From NCBI GenBank assembly GCA_035636095.1, contig DASPZU010000118.1, forward strand, positions 1,316 through 65,315: DNA of 64,000 nucleotides, written 5' to 3'. Every line of letters starts with the position of its first letter. Position 1 is the first letter of the stretch. A program made the position numbers and the translations under genes. Shown in pieces: positions 26,166 to 44,935 of the stretch. Source of the DNA: Thermoanaerobaculia bacterium. Lineage in GTDB: Bacteria; Acidobacteriota; Thermoanaerobaculia; Gp7-AA8. The notes beneath the pieces were generated by a model. It was not told the DNA's origin, made no database searches, and saw only the letters and a list, made by a program, of their open reading frames with translations.

Positions 26166-26251
26166 CTGTCTGTTGACTGTCTTGTAACACGGTCATATAT
26201 TGCGCGCGGCACAGCAGGCCAACTCAAAAACGAGGTTCACAGGGGGCGAAG

Positions 26252-29200
26252 ATGAAAGGTCTTGCGTCGCGTTCTTTTCCATTGCTAGCAATCGCACTTT
26301 TAGTGCTTTCCGCAATTCCCGTTGTCGCACAGGAGCAGACGGCCACCATCGAGGGCGTAGTGACCGACCCGTCGGGGGCAGCGCTTCCAGGCGTGTCGAT
26401 CGGACTGGTGAGCGCCAATGGCCAACGCTTGTCGGCTACGACCGACGGCGCGGGCCGATACCGATTCCCGGCGGTGCCTCCAGGGATCTACGCGATTAAC
26501 GCGACCCTGGAGGGAATGCAGAAGACAACGATCAAGGACGTTCAGGTCACGCTCGGTGCGCCAAAGAAGGTCGACGTGCAGATGAAATTGGCACACGTCT
26601 CGGAGAGCGTCACAGTGAGCGCGGAAGCGCCGATCGTCGACGTGACCTCGAGCGCAACTACGAATTCGATCCGTGCCGAAACTTTCGAGCGGCTTCCGAA
26701 GGGTCGCGACTTTACATCGATCGCCACCCTGGCACCGGGCGCTAGAAATGATCCGAAGGCCGGAGGCATCACAGTTGACGGAGCGTCAGGTTCCGAGAAC
26801 AAATACATCATGGATGGTGTCGACACCACAAACCCGCAGACGGGCGTGTCCGGCAAAGTCCTGGTCACCGACTTCGTCGACGAAGTTCAGGTGAAATCCG
26901 CCGGCTATCAGGCCGAGTTTGGTGGCGCGGTGGGCGGAGTGATCAACGTCATCACCAAGACCGGCACGAACGAATTGAAGGGTTCGGTCGGTGGCTACTA
27001 CACGAATCGTGCGTGGGGCGGGGGCGTTCGCCCAACGCTGCAGATCAAGGCGACCGATCCGAATGCATCCGAGTACCACACGTTTCCTCGCGATGACAAC
27101 AAGGTCGTCGAACCGGGATTCACGCTCGGCGGTCCGGTCATGCGCGATCGACTGTGGTTCTTCGCCGCTTATGAGCCGGCCGTTCAGAACATCGACCGAA
27201 CGCCGGAGGGTTTCACTCAGTCATATTCGCAGGATTTCCGGCGAGACAACGGGGTGCTGAACCTCACCGGAAGTGCCACTTCGAAGTTTCTCTACAAATT
27301 CGCATTCAACAACAGCGGCTACAAGACGACGAACCTTCTGCCTGGCGTCAACGGCCGCGGCAACCCCAACCCATCGTTGTACACGGGAAAGAACGACAAG
27401 TTCATCAACTGGACCGCGTCTGGATACGCCGACTTCGTGGCCAATTCATCGTCGTATTCGAGCCTCCGCGGCGGGCGTTTCTTCCGGAACTACCGTCAGT
27501 CGGGAATCTCGACTGATCCACGCTACGTCTTCTCCGGTTCGAACAGCGTGTTTTCCGACGCGCCGCCGAGCCAGGTCCATCCCTCGGGCTATTCGAGCAT
27601 ACCGACCAATACGGCGACACAGAAGGACGCCTACACCCGCGACAACGTCAACCTGGATACTTCCTGGTTCACGCAATTCATGGGTGAGCATCGGCTCAAG
27701 GGCGGCGTGCAGATCGAGAACCTGAAGAACCAGGTTTTAGATGGGGAGCAGAACTATCGCGTCACGATTTACTGGAACCGCGCCAATCCGCTGAGTGGCA
27801 CACGCGGCAAGTACGGAGCGGTCCGCGTCCGTCAGTTCCGCAGAACGGGCGACGTGACGAGCAAAAATCTCGGGCTATTCCTGCAGGATAGCTGGACCAC
27901 CCTGAACGATCGCCTGACGCTCAACATTGGCTTACGTGGCGAGCAGGAGAAGGTGCCGTCATATGCCACTGAGGGAATCACCGGTCGCTATGCGGTCAAT
28001 TGGGGGTACGGCGACAAACTCGCTCCACGTCTCGGCTTCTCTTACGACGTTCGTGGCGACGGCCGCACGAAGGCGTATGGCAGTTACGGCAGGTTCTACG
28101 ACATCATGAAAATGGAGTTGCCGCGCGGATCGTTCGGCGGCGAGAAATGGATCGACGCCTCTTTCGATCTGAACACCGTCGATTACCTGTCGCTCAATTG
28201 TCAGGGCATCACCAACTCCATCACTCAGCGGCCGACCTGCAACGGTGCGACGTTTGTGTACAACGTCGATTTCCGTCATCCTGCCAACGCAGCCGATCTG
28301 AACCTCATCGACCCGAAGCTCAAACCGATGCAGCAGGAGGAGTACACCGTCGGCATGCAGCATGAGCTTTCGCCGACGATGGCGATCGGCGCCCGCCTCA
28401 CTCGCAAGCACCTCGTTCGGACCATCGAAGACACCGGAGTTCTGGTGACCAACCCAGATGGCTCCCAGGAAGAGCAATTCTTCATCGCCAATCCTGGCGA
28501 AGGCGTTGCCCGGCACATCCTCGGAGCGGACTTGCCGTCCATGCCGAAGCCGAAGCGCGACTACAACGGCCTGGAAGTGGAGTTCACCCGGCGCTTCTCC
28601 AACCGCTTGTCGCTGCATGCGAGCTACCTCTACAGCCGGCTTACAGGCAACTACTCCGGGCTGGCCAATTCCGACGAGGCGGTTGGCTCCGGCAACGCTC
28701 GCACTTCACCGAACGTGAATCGCGCCTTCGACGGTCTTTTCAATTTGTTCAACGCGCAAGGAAAGGCGGTCGTCGGCAGGCTGGCCACCGATCGTCCGCA
28801 TCAGTTCAAGGCCCAGGCTGCGTACGCATTTGCATTCGGAACGACTATCGGCGTGAATCAGTACGTCGGCAGCGGCACGCCATTCCAGACCGAGTTCTCG
28901 GTCTCCAACATCCCCTTCTTCGCCTTCGGTCGCGGCGACATGGGCCGCTCGCCGTGGCTGAAGCAAACGGATCTCAACCTCACGCACGAAATCCGCCTCG
29001 GCGGCGGTTACGCGCTGGCGCTCGGCGTGAACGTTCTGAACCTCTTCGACACGAAGACAGTGCTGAACATCTACGATGTGTACAGTGGCGATAATCTGCG
29101 AATGCGCGACGCCAACGGTAACGCGCTTGCGGTCGGTTCGCACGCTGAGGCGCAGGCATTCTTCAAGGGCTTCGATCCGAAAGCACTCTGCGCGCTGCAG

Positions 29201-29287: not shown

Positions 29288-29354
29288 TCGCCCGACACGA
29301 CCCCGGCATCAAAAGGGTGGCGCTCCGGCGCCACCCTTTCTTATTCTGTGACGG

Positions 29355-31295
29355 TTGCGTAAGCCTTTCCTGGTCCTTTTGATTCTTTTGACCACCTGCG
29401 GGAAGCACGAGCAGGCAAAGCCCAACGTCCTCCTCATCACCCTCGATACCTTTCGCGCCGATCGCGTCACTCCGGCAACGCCGAATCTGCTGAAACTCGC
29501 GCAGAGAGGCGAGTGGTTCCAGCATGCGGATTCGGTCGCGCCGCTGACCTTGCCCTCGCACGCGACCATTCTCTCCGGCATCCTTCCTCCGCATCACGGC
29601 CTGCGGAATAACGAAGTCGGCTCGTTTCCCGATCGCCCTACTCTCGCCACTGTTTTCGCGAAAGGCGGCTATCGCACGGGCGCGTTCGTCAGCGCATTCG
29701 TCCTCGATCGGCGCTTCGGCCTTTGGCGTGGATTCGAAACGTACGACGACGCGATCGCCCGCGATCCCAACGACACCGCGGCGATGTTCGAGGCCGAACG
29801 CCGCGGCGGCGAGACCGTCGATCGCGCGCTGGCGTGGCTGAGCCGCAGCGACGGACGGCCATGGTTCGCGTGGATCCATCTCTATGATGCGCACGCCCCC
29901 TACGCGCCGCCCGCCCCGTTTCCGCAGACGTACGACGGCGAAGTGGCGTACGTCGACGCGCAAGTCGGCCGGATTCTGAGCGCGATCGATCCCGCGAAGA
30001 CGATCGTCGTCGTGGTCGGTGATCACGGTGAGGCCCTCGGCGAACACGGCGAGCTGACCCACGGCCTGCTGGTCTACGAATCCACGCTGCATGTTCCGCT
30101 CATCATGGCGGGACCCGATGTGAAGCCCAACTCAGTGCTGCAGCCGATCAGCACCGTGGAAGTCGCGCCGCGGATTGCGGCCATGGTCGGCTTGTCGATT
30201 CCGCATGACGCGGCATCGGATATCTACGCCGAATCGGAGTATGCCAAGTCATTCGGATGGAGCGGCCTCACATCGATTCGCAGCGGAAATATCAAGCTGA
30301 TTCGCGGCGCGACGTCCGAGATGTTCGATCTTGCCCGCGATCCAAACGAGACCAGGAACATCATCGATGATCGGCGGCGGCTTTACGGTCAGCTCGGCAA
30401 ACGGCTGGACGCGATTGGCGCGACCGCGATAGCCGCCACCGGAACGGTCGACGCCGAGACCCGCGCGAAACTCGCGAGCCTCGGCTACGTTGCGCCGGGT
30501 GCGGCCGCCAGGGGCAGCGGCCGCGATCCGCGCGAGATGGCGCCGCTTTTTCGACGCTACGAAGAAGCACAGGCCAAAAATTCGATCGCCGATCTCGAGC
30601 AGCTGGTCTCGAAAGATCCCGCCAATCCCGTTTTCCGTTCCACGCTCGCCCGCGCGGTCAAGCTCCACGGAGCGATCGATCGCGCCATTGCGCTTAATCG
30701 CGAGGCGGTCGCGCTTTCTCCTGCCGATCCCGACGCCTGGTACAACCTCGCCTCGGCGCTTCAAGAGCGCGGACGCACGGCCGAGGCGAGACAAGTCGCG
30801 ATCGAGGCGATCCGACTCGATCCTCATCGTCCCGACGCGCACAACATCCTCGGAATCGCCGACATCGAAACCGGCGACCCCAGCGGCGCCGAAACCGAAT
30901 TCCGAAAAGCGATCGAGCTCGATCCTCGCAACGCCCGCGCCTGGAACAACCTCGGCAACGTTTTGCGAAGTGCCGGCCGCACAGCAGACGCCGAAACTGC
31001 GTATCGCACAGCCCTCGAGATCACTCCCACCTACGCCGATCCTCTGAACGGACTGGGGGTGATCGCCGTGCAGGAGGGGAGGAGCGCCGAGGCCATCGCC
31101 GATTTCGACAAGGCGCTGGCGGCGGCGCCTAACTTCTATGAAGCGCGGCTCAATCGGGCGATCGCTCTGCAATTGTCCGGGAACATCTCGGGCGCGCGAA
31201 CCGAGCTCCAACACCTGCTAACACACCTGCCCAAGGGGAGTGCGCAGCGGAAAGCGGCCGAAACTCTGCTCGCTCGGCTACCACGGAAGCGTTAA
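29355..31295 (+). CDS. sulfatase-like (alkaline phosphatase superfamily) hydrolase fused to C-terminal TPR repeats, lipoprotein
   Basis: Signal/lipobox LLTTCG. LLITLDTFRADR and VGDHGE are sulfatase-type metal-binding motifs. The C-terminal ~250 aa are TPR repeats (AWYNLA, AHNILG, AWNNLG). Confidence 0.7.
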   Translation: MRKPFLVLLILLTTCGKHEQAKPNVLLITLDTFRADRVTPATPNLLKLAQRGEWFQHADSVAPLTLPSHATILSGILPPHHGLRNNEVGSFPDRPTLATVFAKGGYRTGAFVSAFVLDRRFGLWRGFETYDDAIARDPNDTAAMFEAERRGGETVDRALAWLSRSDGRPWFAWIHLYDAHAPYAPPAPFPQTYDGEVAYVDAQVGRILSAIDPAKTIVVVVGDHGEALGEHGELTHGLLVYESTLHVPLIMAGPDVKPNSVLQPISTVEVAPRIAAMVGLSIPHDAASDIYAESEYAKSFGWSGLTSIRSGNIKLIRGATSEMFDLARDPNETRNIIDDRRRLYGQLGKRLDAIGATAIAATGTVDAETRAKLASLGYVAPGAAARGSGRDPREMAPLFRRYEEAQAKNSIADLEQLVSKDPANPVFRSTLARAVKLHGAIDRAIALNREAVALSPADPDAWYNLASALQERGRTAEARQVAIEAIRLDPHRPDAHNILGIADIETGDPSGAETEFRKAIELDPRNARAWNNLGNVLRSAGRTADAETAYRTALEITPTYADPLNGLGVIAVQEGRSAEAIADFDKALAAAPNFYEARLNRAIALQLSGNISGARTELQHLLTHLPKGSAQRKAAETLLARLPRKR

Positions 31296-31341
31296 CTTGG
31301 TCTATAGTCGGCGTCAATTTTCGGATTCGAAGGAGGTCCAT

Positions 31342-34209
31342 GTGAAGAGGCCACTCTCTTATATTGTTCTTTCCCTACTTCTACTTCTGACCGTGACGGC
31401 TGCCTTTGCGCAGACTGGTGGCGCGGCTCTCGGTGGAACCGTGACCGACGCGTCAGGCGGGGCATTGCCCGGCGTTACCGTCACGGCAACCCAAAACGCC
31501 ACCGGCTTCAATCGTTCGGTCGTGACGGGAGCCGATGGTGCCTATCGTTTTCCGTCTTTACCGGTCGGCACCTACATCGTCACCGCCGATCTTTCGGGAT
31601 TTGCCTCCGTGACGACACGCAACGTCGAGTTGAACGTTGCGCAAGAGCGTGAGCTGAACATCGCGCTCAAGCAGGCGGCGGTCAAAGAACAGATCACGGT
31701 CACGGCGTCGGCTCCGCTTATCGAGACCACACCGGCGGTCAGCACGGTCGTCAGCCAGAAGGAGATTCAGAATCTACCTCTCAACGGCCGTCAGTTCGCG
31801 AACCTCGGCACACTTGCGCCGGGAACGACGCTCTCTGTCAACGCTGACCCGACCAAGCCGGGACAGATGACTATCGCGCTGAACGGCGGCAGCGGCCGCA
31901 ACGTGAATTTCCTCATCGACGGCGGCGACAACACCGATGACACCATCGGGGGCGCGCTGCAGAACTTCAACATCGAAGCGGTGCAGGAATTCAACATTCA
32001 GACGCAGCAGTACAAAGCGGAATTCGGCCGCACCACCGGCGGCGTGCTGACGGTGGTCACCAAGACCGGGACGAACACCTTCGAAGGCAGCGCTTACGAG
32101 TTTTATCGCGACAAGAGCCTCAACTCGGAATCCGAGAGCGAAAAGCTCGGCGGGGGCGGCAAGGCGCCGTATCGCCGCAATCAATACGGAGCGTCGTTCG
32201 GAGGCCCGATCATGAGGGACCGCGCGCACTTCTTCGTCACCGGCGAGCGCACGGAACGGCCGACGAACTACATCGTCCAAACCAAGGGAATTTATCCGGA
32301 CTTCGATGGCAAGGCGATCCCCACTCCGTTCAAGGACAACCTTCTGACCGCGAAGGCGAGCGCCGATATCAACGCCAAACAGTTCCTGCAGGTGCGATAC
32401 GGCATGCAGAGGAACTCGGATAAGTACGGCGCGAGCCCGGTCATTCTTCCGAGCGCGCTCGGCACGATCACGAATACATACCACTCCATCCTCGGCGGGC
32501 ACACCTGGCAGATCAGCTCCGACAAGTTGAACGAATTTCTTTTCCAGGACACCCACTTCAAGAATTCGATCAGCCCCGATTCCACTGACCCCACCATCGT
32601 TTATCCGTCGGGTGTCTCGATCGGACAGAGCATCAACGCGCCACAATCGACGACACAGGTAAAACGCCAGTTTAAGGACGACTTCGCGTGGTCCATGAAT
32701 TTCGGCGCGATGCGCCACGACTTCAAAGTCGGCGCGAACTACATCGACGAGCCGATCCTGGGCGGCGACTTCACTGTCGGCACCACCGGCCAGTACACAC
32801 TGACCGCCGACAAGCAGGGATCGCCGGTGGCCGACATCACGATCTTCGGCGGCTTCTTCGGCAACAAGACCCCCATCAAGCAGTACAACTATTACGTGCA
32901 GGACGACCTGGCGGTCAATAAAAACCTGACCGTCAATGTCGGCTTGCGTTACGACCTCTGGAAAGGCTTCGATCTCGATCAGCACACGAATCCGATCTGG
33001 CAGGCGCTCTCCACGCAAACGAAGTACAACGAGGCCTACTTGCAGCCCTTCAAGAACGGCGGCGGGGGGAAGCTGAAGAACGACACCAACAACTGGGGTC
33101 CGCGCATCGGCTTCTCGTACGACCTGCGCGCCGATTCGAAGAACATCATCCGCGGCGGTTACGGACGCTATTACGATTTCCCGTACACGAACGCCACGAT
33201 TCTGTTCCCCGCTGCGGCAGTGCAGTCGAATTACGGGGTCGTTTACAACAACAGCGATCCCAAAGGGATCAAGAACGCGAACGGCACGTTCTTTCAGCCC
33301 GGCCAGCCGCTGCCCCCCAATCAAATCACCGGGAGTCAGGTCCCTCCACCGAATGAAGTCGCTTCTCCCACCTTGGCCACACCGTACTCCGATCAGTTCT
33401 CGCTTGGATATTCGTGGCAGGTCAATCCATGGCTCGGACTGAATGTCGACGGATCGCACATCAGCTACAAGGACATTCCGTTCCGCTTCCGCGCGAATCC
33501 AACCGATCCGTCGACCGGCAAGCGGCGCTTCCCGGCGTTCGGCAACTTCCGTCTCTGGATGGGCAATGGTTTCGCGAAATACAACGGCCTGAACATCGGC
33601 GGACATGCGCGTCTGGGCGATCGCTTCGAGCTGCAGGGCTTCTACACAATTTCGCACGCGACCGGCAACATCCTCGCCGGAGCCGACGAGTTCCGCATCA
33701 CGGCCGCAGGTTATCAGCCCGATCTACGGACTGTGCGCGATCAGAGCGTCAATCCGTACGATCCCAACTGCAGCGCCTGCACTGGTCCTCTCGACACCGA
33801 TGCGCGCCATCGCGTGACGCTGAGCGGCATGTATCGCGCTCCGTACGGCATCAATCTCTCCGGCATTCTGCGCTACCACTCGGCAACGCCGTACACCGAT
33901 TGGGCCGGCACCGACCTCAATGGCGACAAGTTCAACTTCGATCTGCCCCCCGGCGTCAGCCATGTGAACTCGCTGCGGGGTTCGTCGTTCTCGCAGCTGG
34001 ATGTGCGCGTGGGCAAGGCGTTCAAGTTCTTCGGCAACTACGGCGTTGAACTGATCGGCGAAGTGTTCAACCTGTTCAACTCGAAGAACGAGGCCGGTTT
34101 CGTTGGCAATCGTTTGTCGAAAGCGTACAAGCAGCCCAGCTTCTTCGCTGGCGATCCCGGCCACGGCGAGCAGCGCCTGGCTCAGCTCGGCTTACGCGTC
34201 ACGTTCTAG
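31342..34209 (+). CDS. TonB-dependent receptor-like outer-membrane protein with CarboxypepD_reg domain (paralog 2)
   Basis: GTG start 6 nt after AGGAGG. LGGTVTDASGGALPGVTV..GAYRF. 955 aa ending ...LRVTF. Confidence 0.8.
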   Translation: MKRPLSYIVLSLLLLLTVTAAFAQTGGAALGGTVTDASGGALPGVTVTATQNATGFNRSVVTGADGAYRFPSLPVGTYIVTADLSGFASVTTRNVELNVAQERELNIALKQAAVKEQITVTASAPLIETTPAVSTVVSQKEIQNLPLNGRQFANLGTLAPGTTLSVNADPTKPGQMTIALNGGSGRNVNFLIDGGDNTDDTIGGALQNFNIEAVQEFNIQTQQYKAEFGRTTGGVLTVVTKTGTNTFEGSAYEFYRDKSLNSESESEKLGGGGKAPYRRNQYGASFGGPIMRDRAHFFVTGERTERPTNYIVQTKGIYPDFDGKAIPTPFKDNLLTAKASADINAKQFLQVRYGMQRNSDKYGASPVILPSALGTITNTYHSILGGHTWQISSDKLNEFLFQDTHFKNSISPDSTDPTIVYPSGVSIGQSINAPQSTTQVKRQFKDDFAWSMNFGAMRHDFKVGANYIDEPILGGDFTVGTTGQYTLTADKQGSPVADITIFGGFFGNKTPIKQYNYYVQDDLAVNKNLTVNVGLRYDLWKGFDLDQHTNPIWQALSTQTKYNEAYLQPFKNGGGGKLKNDTNNWGPRIGFSYDLRADSKNIIRGGYGRYYDFPYTNATILFPAAAVQSNYGVVYNNSDPKGIKNANGTFFQPGQPLPPNQITGSQVPPPNEVASPTLATPYSDQFSLGYSWQVNPWLGLNVDGSHISYKDIPFRFRANPTDPSTGKRRFPAFGNFRLWMGNGFAKYNGLNIGGHARLGDRFELQGFYTISHATGNILAGADEFRITAAGYQPDLRTVRDQSVNPYDPNCSACTGPLDTDARHRVTLSGMYRAPYGINLSGILRYHSATPYTDWAGTDLNGDKFNFDLPPGVSHVNSLRGSSFSQLDVRVGKAFKFFGNYGVELIGEVFNLFNSKNEAGFVGNRLSKAYKQPSFFAGDPGHGEQRLAQLGLRVTF

Positions 34210-34260
34210 TCAAGTCACAACCGTCCATGGTGAAGGGCGCCCGAAACGGGCGCCCTTTTT
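34199..34260. repeat. 62-bp direct repeat, left copy (includes the TBDR stop and the terminator hairpin GAAGGGCGCCCGAAACGGGCGCCCTT)
   Basis: Matches 34829-34890 at 59/62 positions. Confidence 0.8.
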
Positions 34261-34766
34261 CGCACTTGCTGAGCTGGATGCAGTGAGTCAAAACGGGGCG
34301 GCACATTGAGTTGAACGGAAACGTTGCTGGCCCGCACGCCTGAGGCGTTGAGATCGTTCTTGACGGCGTCTGCGATTCGATCGGCAGCATCGCGTCGCCG
34401 GTCGATGAGATCGGCCGTCGTGAGCTCGGATGAGGATCGGGTAACGGCATACTGCACGCGCTGCCGCAGCGAGGCGCACCACGTGCCCGGCGGCCAGTCA
34501 GGCGGAACGCTTTCGGGGACTACGTATGTGAACCGGATCCGAATCGGAATGGCATTGTGCGTCGTGGTTGTGCCGCTCGCGACGTCGTCAAAGGACATCG
34601 TGGTCCGGCACGCAATTCCGCGCGCACGGACAAAGAACATCGACCTCCGCATGACGAGATGTTGTCGGTCGCGAAATACGGTGACGCTGCCGGCCGGCTG
34701 ATAGTGCACAAAAACCAGCAGCGCGAGGATCGCGGCGACAAGGATTAGAACCGTGATTGTTCGCAT
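34215..34766 (-). CDS. membrane-anchored protein, paralog of the N-terminal domain of the 39658-41955 protein
   Basis: N-terminal TM helix. IRFTYVVPESVPPDWPPGTWCASLRQRVQ / ADRIADAVKNDLNA..VQLNVPPRF aligns with VTFVYEPPAQLPSDWPAGNWCDSLGQRVQ / SDKIAEAIQRELSA..ARFDLPPGW. The C-terminal ~17 aa are antisense to the repeat hairpin, so the end is uncertain. Confidence 0.45.
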   Translation of the reverse strand: MRTITVLILVAAILALLVFVHYQPAGSVTVFRDRQHLVMRRSMFFVRARGIACRTTMSFDDVASGTTTTHNAIPIRIRFTYVVPESVPPDWPPGTWCASLRQRVQYAVTRSSSELTTADLIDRRRDAADRIADAVKNDLNASGVRASNVSVQLNVPPRFDSLHPAQQVRKRAPVSGALHHGRL

Positions 34767-34828
34767 CAACTGAACGATGCGTGATCCTGGTCTCAGGATA
34801 CAAGGTCGACCCCGGTTAGGTCAGGCAG

Positions 34829-34890
34829 TCACGTTCCAGTCAAGTCACAACCGTCTATGGTGAAGGGCGCCCGAAACGAGCGCCCTTTTC
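34829..34890. repeat. 62-bp direct repeat, right copy (stop codon TAG->CAG; hairpin retained)
   Basis: GTCACGTTCCAGTCAAGTCACAACCGTCTATGGTGAAGGGCGCCCGAAACGAGCGCCCTTTT. Confidence 0.8.
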
Positions 34891-34907
34891 TTGGTGTTCG
34901 CGAGATA

Positions 34908-36551: not shown

Positions 36552-36567
36552 CCGGAGGAGACCTTTC

Positions 36568-38034
36568 ATGCGCGCCATTTCCTTCGCGTTGCTGCTCGGT
36601 GCAATGCCGCTCCTGGCCCAGCAACCCATGCCGCTCACGGAAAAGATCGACGTTTCGGCCGTGAACGTCGATGTGACCGTGTTAGACCGCCAACGCAATC
36701 CGGTTCGTGGCCTTACCGCTGCCGATTTCGAAGTCTTCGAGGATGGTGTCGCTCAGAGAATCACGAACTTCTACGCTGTCGAGAACGGCGGCATCGCGCG
36801 CACCACTGCCGTCGAACCGGACGCCGAGCGTTTCCGGCGCAAAGTGCTCGTCATTGTCGACAACACGGCTCTGTGCGCCAAGCCGCGCCGCAATCTTCTG
36901 CTGAACAAACTGGAATCGTTCATCGATCAGCACTTCTCGGGAGACTACGAGTGGGCGATCGTTCCTCTGGGAGGACCCCAGTCGCCGGGCGCTCTTCCTT
37001 TCACTCAGGACAAGGAAACAATCCACAACGCCATCGAGGCCCTACGTCGGGATGAAGCTTTGCCGCGCGACATGGACTTCGGGGAGATCTCCCGGACCAC
37101 GCAATCCGCGTGCAGGATTTTGCAGGAACAATCGTTTCTTTCGCAGCTTCTCAATAAACAGGTGCGGATGAAGGGAGCTGCTATCTCGGCAGCGGTCGAG
37201 GAAATGTGCGACGGATTGGCGGCCGCCCCGGGGAAAAAAGTCATTCTGCTGGTCACGGATGCCATTCCCAGCGGCAGTTTTCGCGCCGACCTTCCTGACG
37301 ATGCGATTCTGATTCAAAAAATGCATGAAGCAGTCGTCCGCAGCGCAAACGCTGCCAATGTCAACGTGTTCGTGATGAATACGGAAGGGCTGACCGACGG
37401 GGGGACGCCGGGAAGGCCCTTCACGTTGGCGGCCGATGAATCGGGAGGTTTCTGGCTTGCCACTGAAACCGGCGGAAGGTACTTGCACAGCAGTTCGTTT
37501 TCGGAATCGCTGCAGACTTTCGAGAACGCGACGGCAAACTTCTACTCGCTGGGCTACATCATGCGACACGCCGAAGATGCGAAATACCATCGGATCTCGG
37601 TCAGGCTGAAAGGGCCGGGATCGTACGCGCTCAGCTATCGCCTCGGTTTCTCGAGCCGCTCGACGGAGCAACAACTCGAGCGCGCGCTTCGGACGCCGCT
37701 CGGAATCGCGACGCAGCGCTCAACGCTTCCCCTCACCATGGAGGTTGGCGCGCCATCACAAGTCGGAGCGAAAGTGGTTGTGGCCTTGACCGCGATGTTA
37801 CCGGCGGAGCGGGTGCAGGCGGGCCGGCTGGATCTTTATGTCACGGTTTTCGATCAAACCGGACGGAAACTCGGCTTCCATCACTTCAGGCGCGACATCG
37901 AGACGATCGAAACGCCGCAGTTGGTGCTGACCACGCGCCTTACGTTTCCGCACGGCAGCTACCGACTCGTGATGACTCTCCGGGACGAAGAGACGAACGA
38001 AATCGGGATTGCGTCAAGCGATGCCACGTTCTAA
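36568..38034 (+). CDS. VWFA-related Acidobacterial-domain protein, tandem paralog 2
   Basis: GGAGGAG RBS. EKIDVSAVNVDVTVLDRQRNPVRGLTAADFEVFEDGVAQRITNFY. 488 aa. Confidence 0.75.
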   Translation: MRAISFALLLGAMPLLAQQPMPLTEKIDVSAVNVDVTVLDRQRNPVRGLTAADFEVFEDGVAQRITNFYAVENGGIARTTAVEPDAERFRRKVLVIVDNTALCAKPRRNLLLNKLESFIDQHFSGDYEWAIVPLGGPQSPGALPFTQDKETIHNAIEALRRDEALPRDMDFGEISRTTQSACRILQEQSFLSQLLNKQVRMKGAAISAAVEEMCDGLAAAPGKKVILLVTDAIPSGSFRADLPDDAILIQKMHEAVVRSANAANVNVFVMNTEGLTDGGTPGRPFTLAADESGGFWLATETGGRYLHSSSFSESLQTFENATANFYSLGYIMRHAEDAKYHRISVRLKGPGSYALSYRLGFSSRSTEQQLERALRTPLGIATQRSTLPLTMEVGAPSQVGAKVVVALTAMLPAERVQAGRLDLYVTVFDQTGRKLGFHHFRRDIETIETPQLVLTTRLTFPHGSYRLVMTLRDEETNEIGIASSDATF

Positions 38035-39661
38035 CGTCATGTCGGGCTTTGTCGTGGGCGTTCTGGCGACAGCAGCTCTTGTCTCAGCACAGCTCCCGCT
38101 CGTCGAACGCGTCAATGTCTCTGTAGTCAACGTCGACGTAAGCGTATTCGACCGTTCGGGACGGCCGGTCACCAAGTTGCGCCGAGACGATTTTCAGATC
38201 TTCGAGGACGGAAAGCCGCAGAAGATCACCAACTTCTATATCGTCGAGCATTCTGTTCCACGAGCTGAAACGACGCAACAGGAACAAACGCACGGTTCGG
38301 AAAGCCGTTTTCGCCGCAAAGCGATTCTGCTCGTCGACAACATTTTCATCGAGAAGCCGCGTCGGGATGCAGCGCTGGCGACGGTGCAGAAGTTCATGGA
38401 GGGCCGTTTCGCCGGCGATTACGAATGGTCGGTAGGCACGATCGGTAGCGGCATTCACACGATTCTTCCGTTCACGAGTGACAAGACGAAGATTGCCGCG
38501 GCAATCGATCTCGTGCGCCGTGGTGGAACGCTTCCAAAGCGTGATGCTGTAGACCTTGGCATGCTGGCCGACGAAACCGCGCTGCGTGCCGTTCGGGGAG
38601 CACGTGAAAGCGAGCAGACGCGGACGGACCTTGCAAGAAGCATCAGCGCTAACGAAGGCCTGGCAGCTTTGTCTGAACTCGCGAAAGAAGTGATCGACGC
38701 TTGTCGTGGATACAGCAGCGCAGATGGTAAGAAACTCATCGTCTTGGTCACGGGTGCGATTGAAATCGACAACCGTCGTCCAACGATCGACGATGCGGTC
38801 AATCAACCGGCATGGAAGCTTCAGCCGCGTGAGAACCGCAGCGAAACCGGCCGAATCCTCGAAGCGATGGTGCGAGAGGCCAACACTGCGAATTTCAATG
38901 TGTACGTCTTGAACGCCTCGGGAGTTGTCAATCCGGTCCCTAGCGACGTCTCCAACCATGCGTCGGAGTATGTGGCTCAAGGAGGGTTCAATTCACCGCA
39001 CACCGAACGCGATTTCGACTCTTTTCCGCTGTCGCTCGCTATGCAAACGGGCGGAGCATATCTGCCCAGCAACGATCTCGGCGCGTCCTTGCGCCAGGTC
39101 GATGAGGAAAGCTCGACTTATTACTCGCTCGGTTATAGCCCGCCGCATTTCGAAGACGGCAAGTACCATTCGATCGAAGTCCGCGTGACAGGTTCCGCGA
39201 TGACGGTTCGCCATCGGATGGGCTACGCCGATCTCTCGGCCGAGCAAAGAGTCGAGGACGCGATGCGTGTAGCCGTCGCTCCCACCGCCCTCCCGCATCA
39301 GATTCCGGTTCAAATCGAGATCGGGAAATCACGCCAAGAGAACCACAAGATGCATCTGCCTGTGACGCTGATCGCACCAATGAGAAGCGTCGCGCTGTTG
39401 CCGCGCGACGGCCTGAGCGTTGGTCGCGTCCATATCTACCTCTCGGTGTTCGATCAGGCTGGAATCAATATCGGGTTCGATCACCGCACCCAGGACTTGG
39501 CGTTGACGCCGGAGCAATTGCAAAAAGTGACTGAGCTCAACAGCAACTTCCGATATTTCCTGAGCGTAGCCCTCAAACCGGGAAAGTATCGCGTCGTGGT
39601 CGCTCTTCGCGATGACGTCAGCAGCGAGATCGGTATCACTGCTGCGGATGTTCAGGTCTAA
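38021..39661 (+). CDS. VWFA-related Acidobacterial-domain protein, tandem paralog 3
   Basis: ERVNVSVVNVDVSVFDRSGRPVTKLRRDDFQIFEDGKPQKITNFY. The start is ambiguous between ATG 38021 and ATG 38039. Confidence 0.7.
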   Translation: MPRSNVMSGFVVGVLATAALVSAQLPLVERVNVSVVNVDVSVFDRSGRPVTKLRRDDFQIFEDGKPQKITNFYIVEHSVPRAETTQQEQTHGSESRFRRKAILLVDNIFIEKPRRDAALATVQKFMEGRFAGDYEWSVGTIGSGIHTILPFTSDKTKIAAAIDLVRRGGTLPKRDAVDLGMLADETALRAVRGARESEQTRTDLARSISANEGLAALSELAKEVIDACRGYSSADGKKLIVLVTGAIEIDNRRPTIDDAVNQPAWKLQPRENRSETGRILEAMVREANTANFNVYVLNASGVVNPVPSDVSNHASEYVAQGGFNSPHTERDFDSFPLSLAMQTGGAYLPSNDLGASLRQVDEESSTYYSLGYSPPHFEDGKYHSIEVRVTGSAMTVRHRMGYADLSAEQRVEDAMRVAVAPTALPHQIPVQIEIGKSRQENHKMHLPVTLIAPMRSVALLPRDGLSVGRVHIYLSVFDQAGINIGFDHRTQDLALTPEQLQKVTELNSNFRYFLSVALKPGKYRVVVALRDDVSSEIGITAADVQV

Positions 39662-41955
39662 CGCGGCATGCGCTGCAACATCGGCTGGTTTGGATTGAGC
39701 TGCAGCGAACGGCGGAAGTAGCTCTCCGCAGCGGAGCGATCGTCAAGGCACATCTCGGCCAGGCCGGCGGAAGTGTAGGGAACGAAATCGTTCGGATTGA
39801 GATGTTGTGCAGCGATGAAATCTTCCAGGGCGCCTCGGCAGTCTTTCCGCTCGATTCGATAACGTCCGCGAAACATTCGCAGCTCCGCATCCTCCGGCTT
39901 TGCCGCCACCGATTCCTCGAGGAGTTTCAAGCTTCGATCGACATGACCGCCACGCTGGTATTTGATCGCGCGCTCGATCACGTAACGCGAAGCTTCCGGT
40001 AGTCCATTGGTCAGGGCTTTGATCAGCAGCGCATCGGATCGCGCCATATCCTGGTGACGATCGAATAGCAAATCGCTCAGATTCCATGCCGCTGATGCCA
40101 GATTCGGATCGATGGCGAGCGCACGATCAAACGACGTGACGGCGTCAGCAATCCGGCCGTCATGCTTCAGAATGAGGCCTTCGTTGTTGTACGCACCGGC
40201 CGTCTTCGTTGACGTGCCGGCGGCCGCTGGACGAGCGGCGGCCGATTCACCCGTTCCGATGTAGCCAAGCGCGCGCAGTTTTGCGATTTCTTCCGCCGCC
40301 GCCTTTGTGGTCTGCCTGACGCTCGATCTGAATGGCGCATAGTGGGAGCGGTAGTCGACCACGCGACTGCTTTCGCCGTCTGTAAGCGAGGGGCCAGCAA
40401 CTCCATCGGCGCGTGGCATCTGCGTCAGGCTCAGCAAAGTCGCGCAGATCTGCCGGATCGATCCGTGAATCGAGTGACCGGCTTGTGCGCGAATGCCCTC
40501 GCCCCAGGCGAGGAAGATTCCTTCGTTTCGATGCCACTTGGCTGCTGTCGCTGTGGCGGCGCTCGAGAACTGCGTCGGCCGCCCTTCCTTCCATTGGAAG
40601 CCGTGGTCGGAAGCCAGCACGATCATGGCGTGCTGCCGTTCGGCGGCCGCGAGGAATTCGCCGAGGATCGAGTCGATGCGTCGGAAGTAGAGCTCGGGAA
40701 CCTGGTGATAGCGTTCGTACTCTTCCTGCGTGACCTCCGGCTGCTTTGGCGGAGCGTAAGGCGCGAAGATATGGCCGATGGTGTCGGTGCCCTCGAAGTA
40801 CACGATGGTCAGATCTGGAATGTCGCGCGCCACTGTTTCTGTGCCGGTCCGGCGATAAACCTCCGTCTGCACCAGAATTCGGCGCAGAGCGCTGCCTGGT
40901 TTGGCGTAAGGATTCGCTTCATGTGTGAGCTCTTCGTACTGCTGCTGATCGAGCCACGGTAGAAATTCGCGCAGCGCATTGAAATCCGTTGCGCGCTCCG
41001 AGGCCGCCAGCGCTTCGCGACCCCACACCTCGCGCGACGGCGGAAAAATGATTCCTGGTGGTGGGGTGCTCTCCGAGTAGAGAAACGTGAACAGGCGATC
41101 GCTGACCATTAGACCGTGCACCGGTTCAGCAGGATAAGTAGCCCAGAGACCGAAAACGGCCACGCGCTTCCCGCCCATGGAGGCCATGTTCCAGATCGCC
41201 GGCACGCGCCGTTCGTCGCTGGTGATCGGCTCCTTCTCGCCGGTCGTCGGATTGAAACGCACGAAGTCCAGGATCTGGTGCTCGAGCGGACTGACGCCGG
41301 TCATCATCGTCGTCCACACCAACGGCGAAAGAGGAGGATGCTCGGTGGTCAGGTACCCGCTGATGCCTTCCCCAACGAGGCGGGCCAGATTGGGCATGAC
41401 GCCGCGCGCGATGTAGTCGTCGAGCAGTTGCCAGTCTGCGCCATCGAGTCCGATGAAGATGATCGGGCGTGACTTGCGCGCCAGCCGCGCGATCTCTGCG
41501 ATCGCGCGCGTCCGTTCCCATCCCGGCGGAAGGTCGAAGCGAGCCGAGATGCTGCTGGTCGTGAGATGCGCGGCCGAGAGCTCGCGCTGAATCGCCTCCG
41601 CGATTTTGTCGCTGGTTTGGCGCGGCGACTCGACGTTGACCGCGTTTGCGTTAAGGATTCTCTGCACCCGCTGCCCGAGCGAGTCGCACCAGTTCCCGGC
41701 GGGCCAATCGGATGGAAGCTGTGCCGGCGGCTCATAAACGAAAGTGACTTTCAAGTCGAATGGATCGGCGTGCAGAGTTCGATCGAACAGCAGACGGCCG
41801 GCAGCCATCGGAACCGTGCATGGCTCGCCGAATGCCGGCAACCCGATCCGGCTGGTGGAAACCTGAATGGCGTCGCCGTGCCGCACCACACGGGCCGTGT
41901 CGGCTGGCCGGCATGAAAGAGTGAGGAGAAAAATCGACAATAGGAGGCGCCGCAT
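39658..41955 (-). CDS. three-part lipoprotein: N-terminal domain shared with the 34215 gene + alkaline-phosphatase-superfamily (type I phosphodiesterase/sulfatase-like) + C-terminal TPR repeats
   Basis: 765 aa. IIFIGLDGADWQ and LASDHGF are AlkP-superfamily metal-ligand motifs. The C-terminus is TPR-like. Its stop overlaps the VWA paralog 3 stop (convergent). Confidence 0.7.
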   Translation of the reverse strand: MRRLLLSIFLLTLSCRPADTARVVRHGDAIQVSTSRIGLPAFGEPCTVPMAAGRLLFDRTLHADPFDLKVTFVYEPPAQLPSDWPAGNWCDSLGQRVQRILNANAVNVESPRQTSDKIAEAIQRELSAAHLTTSSISARFDLPPGWERTRAIAEIARLARKSRPIIFIGLDGADWQLLDDYIARGVMPNLARLVGEGISGYLTTEHPPLSPLVWTTMMTGVSPLEHQILDFVRFNPTTGEKEPITSDERRVPAIWNMASMGGKRVAVFGLWATYPAEPVHGLMVSDRLFTFLYSESTPPPGIIFPPSREVWGREALAASERATDFNALREFLPWLDQQQYEELTHEANPYAKPGSALRRILVQTEVYRRTGTETVARDIPDLTIVYFEGTDTIGHIFAPYAPPKQPEVTQEEYERYHQVPELYFRRIDSILGEFLAAAERQHAMIVLASDHGFQWKEGRPTQFSSAATATAAKWHRNEGIFLAWGEGIRAQAGHSIHGSIRQICATLLSLTQMPRADGVAGPSLTDGESSRVVDYRSHYAPFRSSVRQTTKAAAEEIAKLRALGYIGTGESAAARPAAAGTSTKTAGAYNNEGLILKHDGRIADAVTSFDRALAIDPNLASAAWNLSDLLFDRHQDMARSDALLIKALTNGLPEASRYVIERAIKYQRGGHVDRSLKLLEESVAAKPEDAELRMFRGRYRIERKDCRGALEDFIAAQHLNPNDFVPYTSAGLAEMCLDDRSAAESYFRRSLQLNPNQPMLQRMPR

Positions 41956-41961
41956 AAAAAA

Positions 41962-41985
41962 AAGGCCCCGCCGAAGCGGGGCCTT
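41962..41985. terminator. bidirectional terminator hairpin (AAGGCCCCG-CCGAAG-CGGGGCCTT) with flanking A-run
   Basis: 9-bp GC stem between convergent genes. Confidence 0.7.
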
Positions 41986-42007
41986 GGATGTTACACGATG
42001 CTACTGG

Positions 42008-44935
42008 TTAGAAAGTCGCTCGAACTCCGAATCGGATCTGGCGAGGTCCGGTAAACGCGCTTCCCGCCCTGAGGAAATCGGGGTTCGGGTGCGCCGAGAT
42101 GTCGACCGTGCCGACCGGGTTGACTGTTCCCGGCATTGTGACCAGCCCGCCGTCGGAAGTGCAGACGTCATCGATCTTCTTACCAGCCGGTACGATGAAT
42201 CCGCCGCATGAACCGTCCTGGATGCGGTTGTAGCGTTGATCGAGGGTGATCTTCCGCTGCAGATTGAGCAGATTGAACACATCGGCGATCATGGTCAGCC
42301 GGACGCCCGCGCCGACTTGCACCGGGTAGTCGACGTGTAGGTCAGCCTCGTAATTCGCAGGGCCACGACCTAGTGCGCCGCGCGGCGTCAGGTAGTACTC
42401 CCAGTTCCCATAGGCAAACGAATAGCCGACTGCCGTCAGCGGGGTCCCTGACGCGTAGTGCGCGCCGACGCCGACGGTAAGACCGCGTACCGGACTGCTC
42501 CCCGGGAACTGATACGAACCGTAGAACTTCAATTGATGCGTCCGATCGTTCGACAGCAGGCCATGATTGTTGACGATGAAGTCGGCGTAGTCGAACGCGG
42601 AGTTGATGTTCGGGTCGAGCTGACCAGTCGACGCCTGGAACGTGCCGTCGTAGTTGCCTTCAAGGCGCGACCACAGGTAGCTGGCGAAGAACTGGTAGTT
42701 GTTGCTAAAGCGCTTTTCTGCATGGAGCTCAACGCCCTTGAAGGTTCGCTTTGCGGGGGGCGTGACCACCGTCCCTCCGTCGTAGAAGCCCGCCTCCCGA
42801 CCGATACCGCTGCCGGGGTTGGCAATAAAGTACTCGCCGGTCGCAGGGACGAGCATGTCCTCGATGACATTTCCCAGCTTGCGATACGTGCCCTGGATTC
42901 CGACTTTGAGGTTGGAGGCGATTTCGTAGTCGTACCCAGCAAGGAGCTCGTCGATGTGCTGCCCCTTCAGTTTGGGATCAACGGCTTCGGTGCTGCCGCC
43001 GAGAACGCCCTGACGGCGCGGAGCAGCCGGGTCCTGGAGGTAGTTGGCGGGATCGGGACTGAAGTTATAGCAGAAGCAAACGATCTCGCCGCCAAATGAG
43101 CGGATGTTGATATCCATGGGGATGGACTCGTAGAAGCGTCCGTAGTTAGCGTACAACTTGCTACGGCCATTGTTCTTCACGTCCCAGATCAGTCCCAGTC
43201 GCGGCGCCCAGTTGCTGTTTAACTTGAACGCCTTGGTGTTGTTGCGTCCGATGAGCTCTTGTGATTCCCACCGAACGCCGGCGTTGACTGTGAAGTTCGA
43301 AATGACGCGCCAGCTATCCTGAATGTAGGCCGAGGTGTTCTTGTCCTCGGGCTTCACGACCAGCGGCGCAGCGATGACCCAGGTGGAAGGCTTGCTGCGA
43401 TCATAGCCCGGCGCCAGATCATCGATGTAGTAACGGTGCCGGTAGTAGATCTGCCCACTGGATGTTTTGAGTTTGTAGATCAGCTGTCCGGCGCCACCCT
43501 GCCAGCTCTGGATGTTCGACTTGAGATCTTCGAAGTCGCCTCCGAGCTTGATGTCATGGTTCGCCAGGAACTTGCTCACATCGATCTTCCCGACGGTGCG
43601 ATTGTATTTTTCCTTGCTGAAGAAGGCGAAGCCGCCAGTCCTGACATTCGGACTGACTGACTGGTCTCGGATTTGCGGAATTTCCGTGCCCGGTCCAGAC
43701 ACGCTCGATTGTTCACTGTGCCTGCCACCTTCGGCGTCGACCAGGAATGTGCTTCCGAACACGCCGTTGTAGCGCCCAAAGTAGTCTGTTCCGCCGGTCT
43801 TCAGTTCGCCTTGGAACGTTGATGGCGGGCCGGCGATGGCGAAGATCGGTCCGCTCGTCTTGGTGGGGTCGCCGATGACCGACAGCGCCAGGTTCTGACT
43901 TTCGGTCGCGCGGAACGTCAGCTTGCCGGCGTACTGCTCATTCCTGACTTTGGTGTCCAGAACTGCCCCGATCGGAAGCTGATAGTTCGGGAGACTCAGG
44001 GGAGCGTTGATACGCGTGCTGGTGTTGGTACGAGCCTGATGATCGTACGCTCCGAAGAACCAGAGGCGATCTTTGACGAAGTAACCGCCGAGATCGCCGC
44101 CCACGTCCAGGGTTTGTTTGCTGTCACCGGCGGAGCCGTCGGTGCCAGGGCGCTGACCAAAGGTCTTGTTATCGGATCGCAACGCATGTGCCGCGTCGTA
44201 GCCGAACACATCACCGGTATACGCGTTGCCACCCGACTTGGTGACCGCGTTGATCAGGCCGCCGGTCATGCGCCCGTACTCGGCGGGCAGACCGCTGGTC
44301 ATGGTATCGACTTCCTGAATGAATTCGACAGGCGCCTGCTTACCCTGCAGGCCGCTGCGCATTTCCGTCGTATTCAGCCCGTCGATGATGTAGGCGTTTT
44401 CCGCGCCAGTCGAGCCGTATACGGTAGTTCCAACAGCGTCGGTCTGTGTGCCCGGCGCGACCTGGGCAGCGGCCACGAAGTTGCGACCGATGGGGAGGGA
44501 CTGAAGCGTTTGCGAAGTGAGGTTCTGACCGCCAACTGTCGATTTGACATCCACCACCGGGGCGGCCGCCGTCACCGTGATTGTCTCCGAGACTGCTGTC
44601 GCCATCTTTACGTCGAGAGTGACGGTGTGGGCGAGTTGGACCACGATGCCCTGCTGCTGGACCGGCGAGAATCCCGTCAGCGTCGCCTTCATCGAATACA
44701 CGCCCGGCGGCAGGAAACCGAAGCGGAACGTCCCGGTCGCGTCGCTGACCGATACCTTGGTTCCCTGCAGGTTTGGTGATTTGAGTTCCAGGGTGACGCC
44801 CGGAAGAGGCGTTCCCGCCTTGTCTGTAACTTTCCCCTCGATCGAGCCCGAGGTTGACGTCTGAGCGAACGCGCCCACGACGACGATCAGACTCAACACG
44901 AGCAGGAGTGCGACTTGAAACTTTTTCACAATCAT
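42008..44935 (-). CDS. TonB-dependent receptor-like outer-membrane protein with CarboxypepD_reg domain (paralog 3)
   Basis: Signal peptide, IEGKVTDKAGTPLPGVTL..GTFRF. 975 aa ending ...VRATF. Confidence 0.8.
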   Translation of the reverse strand: MIVKKFQVALLLVLSLIVVVGAFAQTSTSGSIEGKVTDKAGTPLPGVTLELKSPNLQGTKVSVSDATGTFRFGFLPPGVYSMKATLTGFSPVQQQGIVVQLAHTVTLDVKMATAVSETITVTAAAPVVDVKSTVGGQNLTSQTLQSLPIGRNFVAAAQVAPGTQTDAVGTTVYGSTGAENAYIIDGLNTTEMRSGLQGKQAPVEFIQEVDTMTSGLPAEYGRMTGGLINAVTKSGGNAYTGDVFGYDAAHALRSDNKTFGQRPGTDGSAGDSKQTLDVGGDLGGYFVKDRLWFFGAYDHQARTNTSTRINAPLSLPNYQLPIGAVLDTKVRNEQYAGKLTFRATESQNLALSVIGDPTKTSGPIFAIAGPPSTFQGELKTGGTDYFGRYNGVFGSTFLVDAEGGRHSEQSSVSGPGTEIPQIRDQSVSPNVRTGGFAFFSKEKYNRTVGKIDVSKFLANHDIKLGGDFEDLKSNIQSWQGGAGQLIYKLKTSSGQIYYRHRYYIDDLAPGYDRSKPSTWVIAAPLVVKPEDKNTSAYIQDSWRVISNFTVNAGVRWESQELIGRNNTKAFKLNSNWAPRLGLIWDVKNNGRSKLYANYGRFYESIPMDINIRSFGGEIVCFCYNFSPDPANYLQDPAAPRRQGVLGGSTEAVDPKLKGQHIDELLAGYDYEIASNLKVGIQGTYRKLGNVIEDMLVPATGEYFIANPGSGIGREAGFYDGGTVVTPPAKRTFKGVELHAEKRFSNNYQFFASYLWSRLEGNYDGTFQASTGQLDPNINSAFDYADFIVNNHGLLSNDRTHQLKFYGSYQFPGSSPVRGLTVGVGAHYASGTPLTAVGYSFAYGNWEYYLTPRGALGRGPANYEADLHVDYPVQVGAGVRLTMIADVFNLLNLQRKITLDQRYNRIQDGSCGGFIVPAGKKIDDVCTSDGGLVTMPGTVNPVGTVDISAHPNPDFLRAGSAFTGPRQIRFGVRATF

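Follow-up and report, generated by a model that had tools for sequence, protein, structure and literature searches.

A conserved cell-envelope gene cluster of Thermoanaerobaculia combining VWFA-related proteins, TonB-dependent transporters, and AlkP-superfamily TPR enzymes

The main finding of this study is that a region of ~19 kb in the genome of a Thermoanaerobaculia bacterium holds a cell-envelope gene cluster with a conserved core. The region spans positions 26252–44935 of the stretch that we analyzed, hereafter the window, which comprises 64,000 nucleotides of contig DASPZU010000118.1 (GenBank assembly GCA_035636095.1). Gene calls based on a listing of open reading frames (ORFs) and on profile searches of the window proteins (Pfam, NCBIfam) confirmed nine genes: three for TonB-dependent transporters (TBDT1 to TBDT3), two for proteins in which an AlkP-superfamily domain is fused to tetratricopeptide repeats (AlkP-TPR), three for VWFA-related proteins of the TIGR03436 family (VWFA1 to VWFA3), and a small gene for a domain, here called NDOM, that recurs in one of the two AlkP-TPR proteins, the NDOM-phosphodiesterase-TPR protein (PDE-TPR). 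It is well supported that the conserved core consists of one to five VWFA genes converging on a pair in which a TBDT gene is followed by the NDOM-bearing PDE-TPR gene. It is equally well supported that a pair formed by the second AlkP-TPR gene, which has a sulfatase fold, and a TBDT gene, sometimes together with a third TBDT gene, travels with this core.

Conservation of the cluster and its limits

The core is most readily seen on three long contigs from metagenomes or metagenome-assembled genomes (MAGs), where the VWFA proteins are 46–55% identical and the neighborhood is the same, with five, two, and one VWFA copies. The order on these contigs is EF-G, a kinase, two unknown genes, a carboxyltransferase, and then the VWFA gene or genes, which run toward a convergent Phosphodiest/TPR gene with a CarboxypepD_reg TBDT gene upstream of it; a Sulfatase/TPR gene followed by a TBDT gene lies nearby. 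A genome scan from the VWFA side, with one genome per GTDB species, returned 80 loci, which were mapped with hidden Markov models built from the window proteins and binned by the identity of their VWFA to VWFA1: at least 40% (9 loci), 29–39% (6), and below 29% (65). In the first bin, seven of nine species-level loci have an AlkP-TPR gene directly adjacent to VWFA as well as a TBDT gene, one of the two exceptions being a 5.4-kb contig that stops within the VWFA array, and in the second bin an AlkP-TPR gene is found in the locus in four cases out of six. The preliminary description of this region had proposed that VWFA genes repeatedly cluster with TBDT and AlkP-TPR genes, and had suggested an analysis of neighborhood conservation as a check. 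The triad retained in seven of nine loci at this level of identity upholds the proposal for the orthologous group, although not, as detailed below, for the TIGR03436 family as a whole. Of the two outcomes that had been named as damaging to it, neither was found: VWFA genes are linked to TBDT or AlkP-TPR genes in other genomes, and the paralogs are old and have conserved partners.

The details of the arrangement are also preserved. The convergent junction between VWFA and PDE-TPR measures from −4 to 327 bp in 11 loci, and TBDT3 has orthologues in 12 loci. In locus L007, the triad lies inverted between obg and the carboxyltransferase gene; other genes flank it in L011 and L014, and L018 has it in reshuffled form. 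In the window and in L020, the Sulfatase/TPR–TBDT pair is upstream of VWFA, and in six other loci it is found beyond TBDT3. Independent support comes from the size of the longest contig, which is identical for 21 VWFA and PDE-TPR matches, some of them on contigs as short as 7.7–23 kb. NDOM itself was found only in PDE-TPR genes beside VWFA (13 genome-scan loci; L001 and L005 repeat two of these) and in the small gene of the window.

The region had been introduced as an accessory island, a label that does not fit. Its GC content (0.57–0.62, against 0.58–0.64 in the flanks) is in the range of the window, and the same site, from the carboxyltransferase gene to obg, is occupied in L001, L003, L004, L007, L008, L009, and L020; base composition and presence at the same site in relatives together rule out a horizontally acquired island. 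The only two tRNA genes are ~16 kb from the region, and no mobility genes were found among the genes scanned in or beside it. Only the small gene at 34215–34766 looks like a local insertion. It is well supported that the region as a whole is a cell-envelope gene cluster that Thermoanaerobaculia have inherited vertically.

The linkage has clear limits on both sides. Below 29% VWFA identity, none of the 65 loci has an adjacent AlkP gene and five have one anywhere within 10 kb, while a TBDT gene occurs within 10 kb in 14, which is roughly the chance level (an expectation that we estimated rather than computed). These distant paralogs are mostly VWFA-only tandem arrays or singletons. A family-wide partner of TIGR03436 was considered and rejected, since 45 co-directional neighbors hit 67 Pfam families, none in more than four, the commonest being pseudouridine synthase (4) and M13 peptidase and PPDK (3 each). 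From the PDE-TPR side, a protein search returned close orthologues only, and the wider family was sampled by a metagenome scan seeded with the divergent PDE-TPR of L014, which gave 80 loci at 30–62% identity. Neither VWFA nor NDOM occurs in any of these 80 loci, from which it follows that VWFA linkage is restricted to the orthologous group with NDOM. A co-directional TBDT gene is directly upstream of PDE-TPR in ~8 of the 80, and the TBDT–PDE-TPR pair, being found in the wider family without VWFA, is thus a recurring and older unit. The other upstream neighbors in the wider family are mostly housekeeping genes (such as dnaE, metK, and ahcY).

Several loci outside the orthologous group deserve mention in their own right, and a few distant VWFA loci are reminiscent of the cluster. 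In L062, a Candidatus Multivoradales MAG (4012–19156), four VWFA genes in an array run toward a convergent TPR gene, which is preceded on its own strand by an FG-GAP/ASPIC-UnbV gene and a Sulfatase/TPR gene; the pairing of FG-GAP and VWA is integrin-like. L075 has the order TPR, VWFA, TBDT on one strand. In L061, L067, and L076 (Vicinamibacterales, with one MAG mislabeled Bifidobacteriaceae), a TBDT gene is followed by two VWFA genes whose products are longer (~700–760 aa) and lack the C-terminal part of the window type; these may be a separate TBDT–VWFA association in another order. Within the wider PDE-TPR family, the metagenome loci L095, L097, L100, L105, L107, and L133 form a clade of ~1000-aa proteins encoded in a conserved run of DNA polymerase III alpha, S-adenosylmethionine synthetase, adenosylhomocysteinase, and PDE-TPR, that is, a predicted envelope enzyme embedded among core metabolic genes. 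Finally, a single metagenome contig, L117 (9900–21100), carries a PDE-TPR gene and then four more Phosphodiest-family ORFs.

Properties of the encoded proteins

The VWFA proteins are encoded in tandem on the plus strand, at 34917–36551 (VWFA1), 36568–38034 (VWFA2), and 38039–39661 (VWFA3, whose stop codon overlaps that of the convergent PDE-TPR gene by 4 bp). The preliminary description had recognized them as TIGR03436 paralogs, and they score 187.5, 132.9, and 177.1 bits, respectively, against an NCBIfam cut-off of 81.25 bits, covering model positions 4–321 of 324. The shared N-terminal block of ~45 aa that it had pointed out is borne out by alignment of the three proteins, with N35, V36, D37, V38, D42, R43, P47, V48, D55, F56, F59, E60, D61, G62, Q65, I67, T68, N69, F70, and Y71 invariant. 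So is the degeneracy of the metal ion-dependent adhesion site (MIDAS), in which the DxSxS position reads DNNFI, DNTAL, and DNIFI; among the three proteins, the Asp of the “TDG” motif is kept in VWFA2 only. None of the 21 VWFA proteins encoded in orthologous loci has a canonical MIDAS, compared with 2 of 106 proteins from the rest of the family. A canonical metal-binding VWA domain of the integrin I-domain type, which needs DxSxS and the downstream Thr/Asp, can thus be rejected. All three proteins have a Sec-type signal peptide and no lipobox.

Structure prediction, which had also been suggested as a check, gave an AF2 model of VWFA1 (pLDDT 77, pTM 0.73) whose top Foldseek matches in the PDB are VWA domains. 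The matches include ANTXR2, TEM8, ITIH1, TFIIH p44, and BatB, with a probability of 1.0, target TM scores of 0.5–0.6, and ~10% identity. According to the model, an N-terminal β-sandwich is followed by the VWA fold with a helical insert (residues 175–228) and by a C-terminal β-sandwich (432–543). The loop 295–334 (window ~35799–35918) has the lowest model confidence (pLDDT below 50), and R295, APQH 299–302, P327, D329, D332, D334, and S335 in it are near-invariant across 56 homologues. This loop may be a functional site in place of the MIDAS.

The three paralogs are 35–41% identical to one another (VWFA2 is 35–36% identical to VWFA1 and VWFA3), and VWFA3-type orthologues occur at 44–45% identity in L006. 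These figures rule out a recent tandem duplication, and the orthologues in L006 indicate that the duplications are old. VWFA1 is closest to the single-copy orthologues, and the VWFA1 type, being the one that single-copy loci carry, is the universal copy. The claim that the family is restricted to and expanded in Acidobacteria agrees with our searches, in which named homologues are overwhelmingly from Acidobacteriota and tandem arrays reach seven copies: the source names in the VWFA protein search are all Thermoanaerobaculia, most of the 80 genome loci are labeled Acidobacteriota or one of its lineages, and a few MAGs among them carry another label or none. Database entries from a Thermoanaerobaculia MAG match VWFA1 and PDE-TPR with full identity. 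A literature search on TIGR03436 and on “VWFA-related” with Acidobacteria found nothing relevant, in keeping with the description of a family without known function, and searches on carboxypeptidase-regulatory TBDTs in Acidobacteria and on Thermoanaerobaculia with TonB were equally unproductive. Compared with TIGR03436 at large, VWFA1 to VWFA3 share the profile score, the N-terminal block, and the Acidobacteriota origin. They differ in forming a subfamily of ~550 aa with an extra C-terminal β-sandwich of ~110 residues, a long helical insert, and the conserved low-confidence loop, and within TIGR03436 a link to NDOM-PDE-TPR and TBDT genes is seen for their orthologous group only.

The two AlkP-TPR proteins had been correctly described as fusions, but one of them was misnamed. 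The sulfatase-fold protein (29355–31295, plus strand; lipobox-like LLTTC) matches PF00884 at 111 bits as well as many TPR families, and its metal ligands are conserved. However, the formylglycine signature C/S-x-P-x-R is absent, and TLPSH stands where CxPxR is expected. The motif T[LM]P[AS]H is present in 11 of 11 TPR-fused sulfatase-fold homologues, while the stand-alone sulfatase of L079 has CVPSR. PDE-TPR (39658–41955, minus strand) combines TPR with PF01663 at 103 bits (cut-off 23), which places it in the NPP type, and across 46 homologues the conservation of the NPP-type motifs GLDGxDW, PPLSP..W.TMMTG, GTDxxGH, SDHGF, and WHR is 90% or higher. In the AlkP superfamily, enzymes with a Ser or Thr nucleophile catalyze phosphoryl transfer, and a Thr nucleophile in an enzyme that lacks the formylglycine signature points to the transfer of phosphoryl, not sulfuryl, groups. 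Given a Ser/Thr nucleophile and intact metal ligands, both AlkP-TPR proteins, judged from their motifs, look like phosphoryl-transfer enzymes and not sulfatases. As in other members of the superfamily (NPP, PF01663; EptA/LtaS/PehA, PF00884), the Pfam scores are above the cut-offs and the nucleophile and metal-ligand motifs are conserved; the window enzymes differ in their C-terminal TPR and, in the phosphodiesterase, in the rare NDOM with its apparently SPFH/FliL-like fold. Sequence searches against solved structures yielded nothing beyond generic matches to TPR, sulfatase, and PhnA domains, and the nearest solved relatives match at domain level only.

PDE-TPR consists of an N-terminal anchor, NDOM (~20–150), the NPP-type catalytic domain, and C-terminal TPR. 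In most homologues the N terminus is an uncleaved membrane helix followed by QPxGxARV (more than 40 homologues). The window protein (41890–41955, minus strand) and its two closest relatives, the homologues P0122 and P0124, have instead a lipobox-like N terminus (LTLSC, FTFGC, and FLLAC), so that the window lineage looks as if it had switched anchoring from a membrane helix to a lipobox-like signal. NDOM (model pLDDT 87) has two conserved cysteines, which argue for a periplasmic location. Fold comparison placed it closest to erlin, flotillin, stomatin, HflK/C, prohibitin, and FliL, all of them SPFH-family or FliL proteins, in which the domain likewise directly follows an N-terminal membrane anchor. 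These matches are weak (Foldseek E 0.016, TM ~0.4), and NDOM differs from these proteins in having no coiled-coil oligomerization region; neither the small NDOM protein nor PDE-TPR matches Pfam Band_7 (PF01145). The family is rare, with 30 clusters among 1.84 billion representatives, in stand-alone and fused forms. The small gene is indeed real, as the preliminary description had it, and shares NDOM with PDE-TPR, but it lies on the minus strand (34215–34766); the overlapping plus-strand ORF 34324–34701 has no Pfam match and is probably spurious. Its 183-aa product has an N-terminal membrane helix and is 27% identical to the first ~150 residues of PDE-TPR (BLASTP 2e-17). Among the loci examined, a stand-alone NDOM gene is present in this genome only.

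The three TBDTs, 25–31% identical to one another, are encoded at 26252–29287 (TBDT1, plus strand), 31342–34209 (TBDT2, plus strand), and 42008–44935 (TBDT3, minus strand, the upstream partner of PDE-TPR); the start codon of TBDT2 is a GTG with GGAGG in front, in an ORF that opens at 31240. Their description as outer-membrane proteins of the CarboxypepD_reg type is sound, with matches to PF13620 (CarboxypepD_reg) of 68, 77, and 63 bits and to PF25183 (OMP_b-brl_4) of 108, 237, and 134 bits, respectively. TBDT2 also matches PF00593 (44.6 bits). The plug domain PF07715 is found in TBDT1 (24.5 bits) and TBDT2 (25.9 bits), just over the cut-off of 23.9, and TBDT3 has no match to it at E ≤ 0.01. Each of the three begins with a signal peptide and ends in Phe, with the PF13620 extension and the barrel in between, and carries a TonB-box-like motif E[ST][IV]TV[ST]A behind the extension (SESVTVSA in TBDT1, SETITVTA in TBDT3). 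With a PF13620 extension and an outer-membrane barrel, they belong to the Oar subclass, whose architecture is a PF13620 extension, plug, and barrel and which makes up 28% of all TBDTs (PMC6434023). The resemblance to Oar of Myxococcus xanthus extends to the signal peptide, the TonB-box-like motif, the large barrel, and, in TBDT1 and TBDT2, the marginal plug match (PMC6434023), whereas no TonB/ExbBD genes and no PopC-like protease cargo are adjacent, and the window TBDTs are paired with AlkP-TPR genes.

Transcription units and neighboring genes

The cluster is probably made of several transcription units rather than one operon, as indicated by its hairpins and convergent genes. A sigma-70-like promoter match, TTGACT-17-TATATT, lies upstream of TBDT1 at 26173–26201 (plus strand; 10 of 12 consensus positions, a consensus match only). 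Terminator-like hairpins follow TBDT1 (29312–29339, plus strand; 12-bp stem) and TBDT2 (34235–34255, plus strand; GC-rich, with a T-run), and another lies between TBDT3 and PDE-TPR (41962–41985, minus strand; 10-bp stem and T-run). A strong GC-rich hairpin with a T-run is thus found 3′ of each TBDT gene even when the next cluster gene is within ~50–70 bp, which suggests that the TBDTs may be expressed at another level than the downstream enzyme genes. The VWFA genes are 4–17 bp apart and converge on PDE-TPR.

A direct repeat of ~60 bp exactly brackets the small NDOM gene and has no further copies in the window. Copy 1 (34199–34260, plus strand) comprises the last TBDT2 codons and the hairpin GGGCGCCC-GAAAC-GGGCGCCC-TTTT, and copy 2 (34829–34890, plus strand) lies 630 bp away with 2 mismatches in 51 nt. 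This arrangement suggests that the small gene arrived by local insertion or duplication.

A conserved promoter-like block, CTTGCGCTAA-N7-TAAAAATACTAC, is present upstream of TBDT3 orthologues (window ~44936–45240, minus strand, and the same region of L003, L004, L008, L009, L011, L016, L018, and L020); the variant in the window and L020 is TTGTGCTAAGT...GAAAATTAGTAAGGT. Several loci share a further block upstream of the TBDT3 orthologues, AATTGGGTGGGACACCAA..TTCGAATCGAAAATCCGA, and a conserved leader GGAGGT...CCTC occurs ~90 nt before their start codon. Rfam gave nothing upstream of TBDT3 and only the two tRNAs in the whole window, and visual inspection of the TBDT upstream regions, which involved no statistical search, revealed no Fur or Pho boxes.

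The cluster is flanked upstream by genes for EF-G, a Ser/Thr kinase-TPR protein, and an acyl-CoA carboxyltransferase, and downstream by rplU-rpmA-obg; the remainder of the window encodes a Mur ligase, GreA, LepA, and peptidases S46 and S9. At 22415–24375, and in the equivalents in L001, L003, and L004, there are two to three conserved genes with no Pfam match (~250–300 aa and ~55–90 aa), always between the Ser/Thr kinase-TPR gene and the carboxyltransferase gene.

A possible function and its alternatives

From the sequence features, we tentatively favor a function in which uptake through the TBDTs is TonB-dependent and linked to the processing of phosphoesters in the periplasm, and in which the VWFA proteins serve as binding partners that need no metal. 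The TBDTs would import a phosphoester-bearing substrate across the outer membrane, energized by TonB, and the two AlkP-TPR enzymes would process it in the periplasm. The TPR tails would dock these enzymes to the periplasmic N-terminal extension of the TBDTs or to the VWFA proteins, which would act as binding or scaffold proteins tied specifically to the NDOM-bearing enzyme. TBDTs are overwhelmingly importers, and phosphate freed in the periplasm requires no dedicated inner-membrane transporter in the locus. The cell-surface binding or uptake module suggested in the preliminary description is putative, as is any surface exposure of the VWFA proteins.

Comparison with known systems highlights similarities and differences. 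As in SusC/SusD loci, a TBDT with a carboxypeptidase-regulatory-like extension adjoins a TPR protein and hydrolase-type enzymes, all extracytoplasmic. In contrast to the SusC/SusD loci of Bacteroidota, TPR is fused to the enzyme here, and one enzyme has an inner-membrane-type anchor in most homologues. There is no SusD, glycoside hydrolase, or regulator family among the nine products, which excludes a SusC/SusD utilization locus, and the likeness is a resemblance, not membership. The Bat operon likewise combines envelope proteins of the VWA fold with TPR proteins, and BatB is among the fold matches of VWFA1 (ranks 39 and 41), but Bat has no counterpart of the TBDT and AlkP partners. Bat VWA domains keep their MIDAS. 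A Bat/MoxR-VWA system was rejected, with no MoxR ATPase, DUF58, or BatA/BatD-type VWA among the scanned cluster or flanking genes.

Several observations weigh against coupled uptake and processing. In the locus, we identified neither a regulator nor TonB/ExbBD, an inner-membrane transporter, or a Pho-type signal. The hairpin after each TBDT gene implies that the TBDT/enzyme pairs are perhaps only loosely coupled, and the VWFA genes, being convergent with the TBDT/PDE genes, are not co-transcribed with them. Since most triad loci keep their housekeeping flanks, part of the conservation is plain synteny in one class, and because the wider PDE-TPR family mostly lies beside housekeeping genes such as dnaE, metK, and ahcY, envelope maintenance fits it better than substrate-specific scavenging. 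A further weak point is the SPFH-like assignment of NDOM, given its low fold scores.

The alternative that survives best, although we regard it as somewhat unlikely, is that these genes are neighbors by descent: expanded envelope families in a slowly rearranging region of one class, with no functional unit. TBDT, TIGR03436, and AlkP-TPR families are all highly expanded in Acidobacteriota. The EF-G, Ser/Thr kinase, carboxyltransferase, and obg flanks are conserved in most orthologous loci, the transcription units are convergent with terminator-like hairpins between them, no linkage is seen between distant VWFA paralogs and PDE-TPR genes of the wider family, and TBDT genes near 14 of 65 distant VWFA loci are close to the estimated background. 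Common descent alone, however, accounts poorly for a triad that stays contiguous despite changed or inverted flanks (L007, L011, and L014), for a sulfatase-TPR/TBDT pair that moves yet stays, for the perfect co-occurrence of NDOM with VWFA adjacency, or for a tight convergent junction in 11 loci at 30–55% protein identity. The layout of L062, in which VWFA genes converge on TPR with sulfatase-TPR behind it, is similar at only 25% VWFA identity.

An unlikely alternative, for which the housekeeping neighbors of the wider PDE-TPR family also speak, is that the AlkP-TPR enzymes modify or maintain the cell's own envelope, acting on its lipids or glycans like EptA, LtaS, OpgB, and YejM, with the TPR and VWFA proteins as scaffolds and the TBDTs as homeostasis partners rather than nutrient importers. 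A Thr nucleophile in a sulfatase fold is a hallmark of EptA/LtaS-type transferases, weak NCBIfam matches to YejM/LapC and PehA were found, PDE-TPR is membrane anchored, and the locus is single-copy, fixed in position, and widely conserved in the manner of a core function. Yet neither enzyme has the multi-span N-terminal membrane domain of EptA, LtaS, and OpgB, the locus is devoid of lipid- or glycan-synthesis genes, and this reading does not readily account for three TBDTs with TonB-box-like motifs.

It is more doubtful, and an argument from analogy, that the Oar-type TBDTs carry VWFA proteins, once exported by Sec, through the outer membrane or onto it for display as adhesins. The parallels, both in Myxococcus, are the secretion of PopC, which depends on Oar, and the Glt outer-membrane platform that displays the VWA adhesin CglB. 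The VWFA proteins have signal peptides and yet no lipobox, barrel, or other recognizable surface route, and a copy number of one to five is common for adhesins. The shared Oar architecture (PMC6434023) and the precedent of a VWA adhesin that works with outer-membrane barrels and TPR proteins (PMC9946355) are on the same side. Against this, an Oar-type architecture is widespread among TBDTs, mostly in the service of import (PMC6434023), VWA domains of adhesins normally have the intact MIDAS that is absent here, the two hydrolase-like enzymes are left without a role, and most TIGR03436 members have no TBDT neighbor. Quite improbable, finally, is a Thermoanaerobaculia-specific envelope-spanning assembly in which NDOM would anchor PDE-TPR at the inner membrane, possibly at the ExbBD/TonB motor as FliL is at the homologous MotAB stator, and the TPR tail and VWFA would bridge to the Oar-type TBDT, so that an imported phosphorylated polymer would be channeled to the hydrolase or VWA proteins would be exported and displayed.

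Whichever of these functions applies, all parts of the cluster come from known superfamilies and loci with a TBDT and a hydrolase are of a known kind, so we consider the cluster only moderately unusual. With these known superfamilies, uncultured MAG lineages, and no function from the data, the payoff is limited. What is undescribed is the conserved combination of a MIDAS-less TIGR03436 orthologous group with TBDT and NDOM-PDE-TPR, as are the rare anchor domain of putative SPFH/FliL-like fold and the reassignment, from its motifs, of a “sulfatase” to probable phosphoryl-transfer chemistry. Of the paralog families in Acidobacteriota that lack a function, TIGR03436 is one of the largest, and no outer-membrane proteins of these bacteria are more expanded than the Oar-type TBDTs. 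An orthologous group locked to a specific TBDT/enzyme pair and a rare N-terminal domain is the first concrete experimental handle on either family, and it offers candidate partners and candidate enzymology—phosphoester rather than sulfate—both of which are testable.

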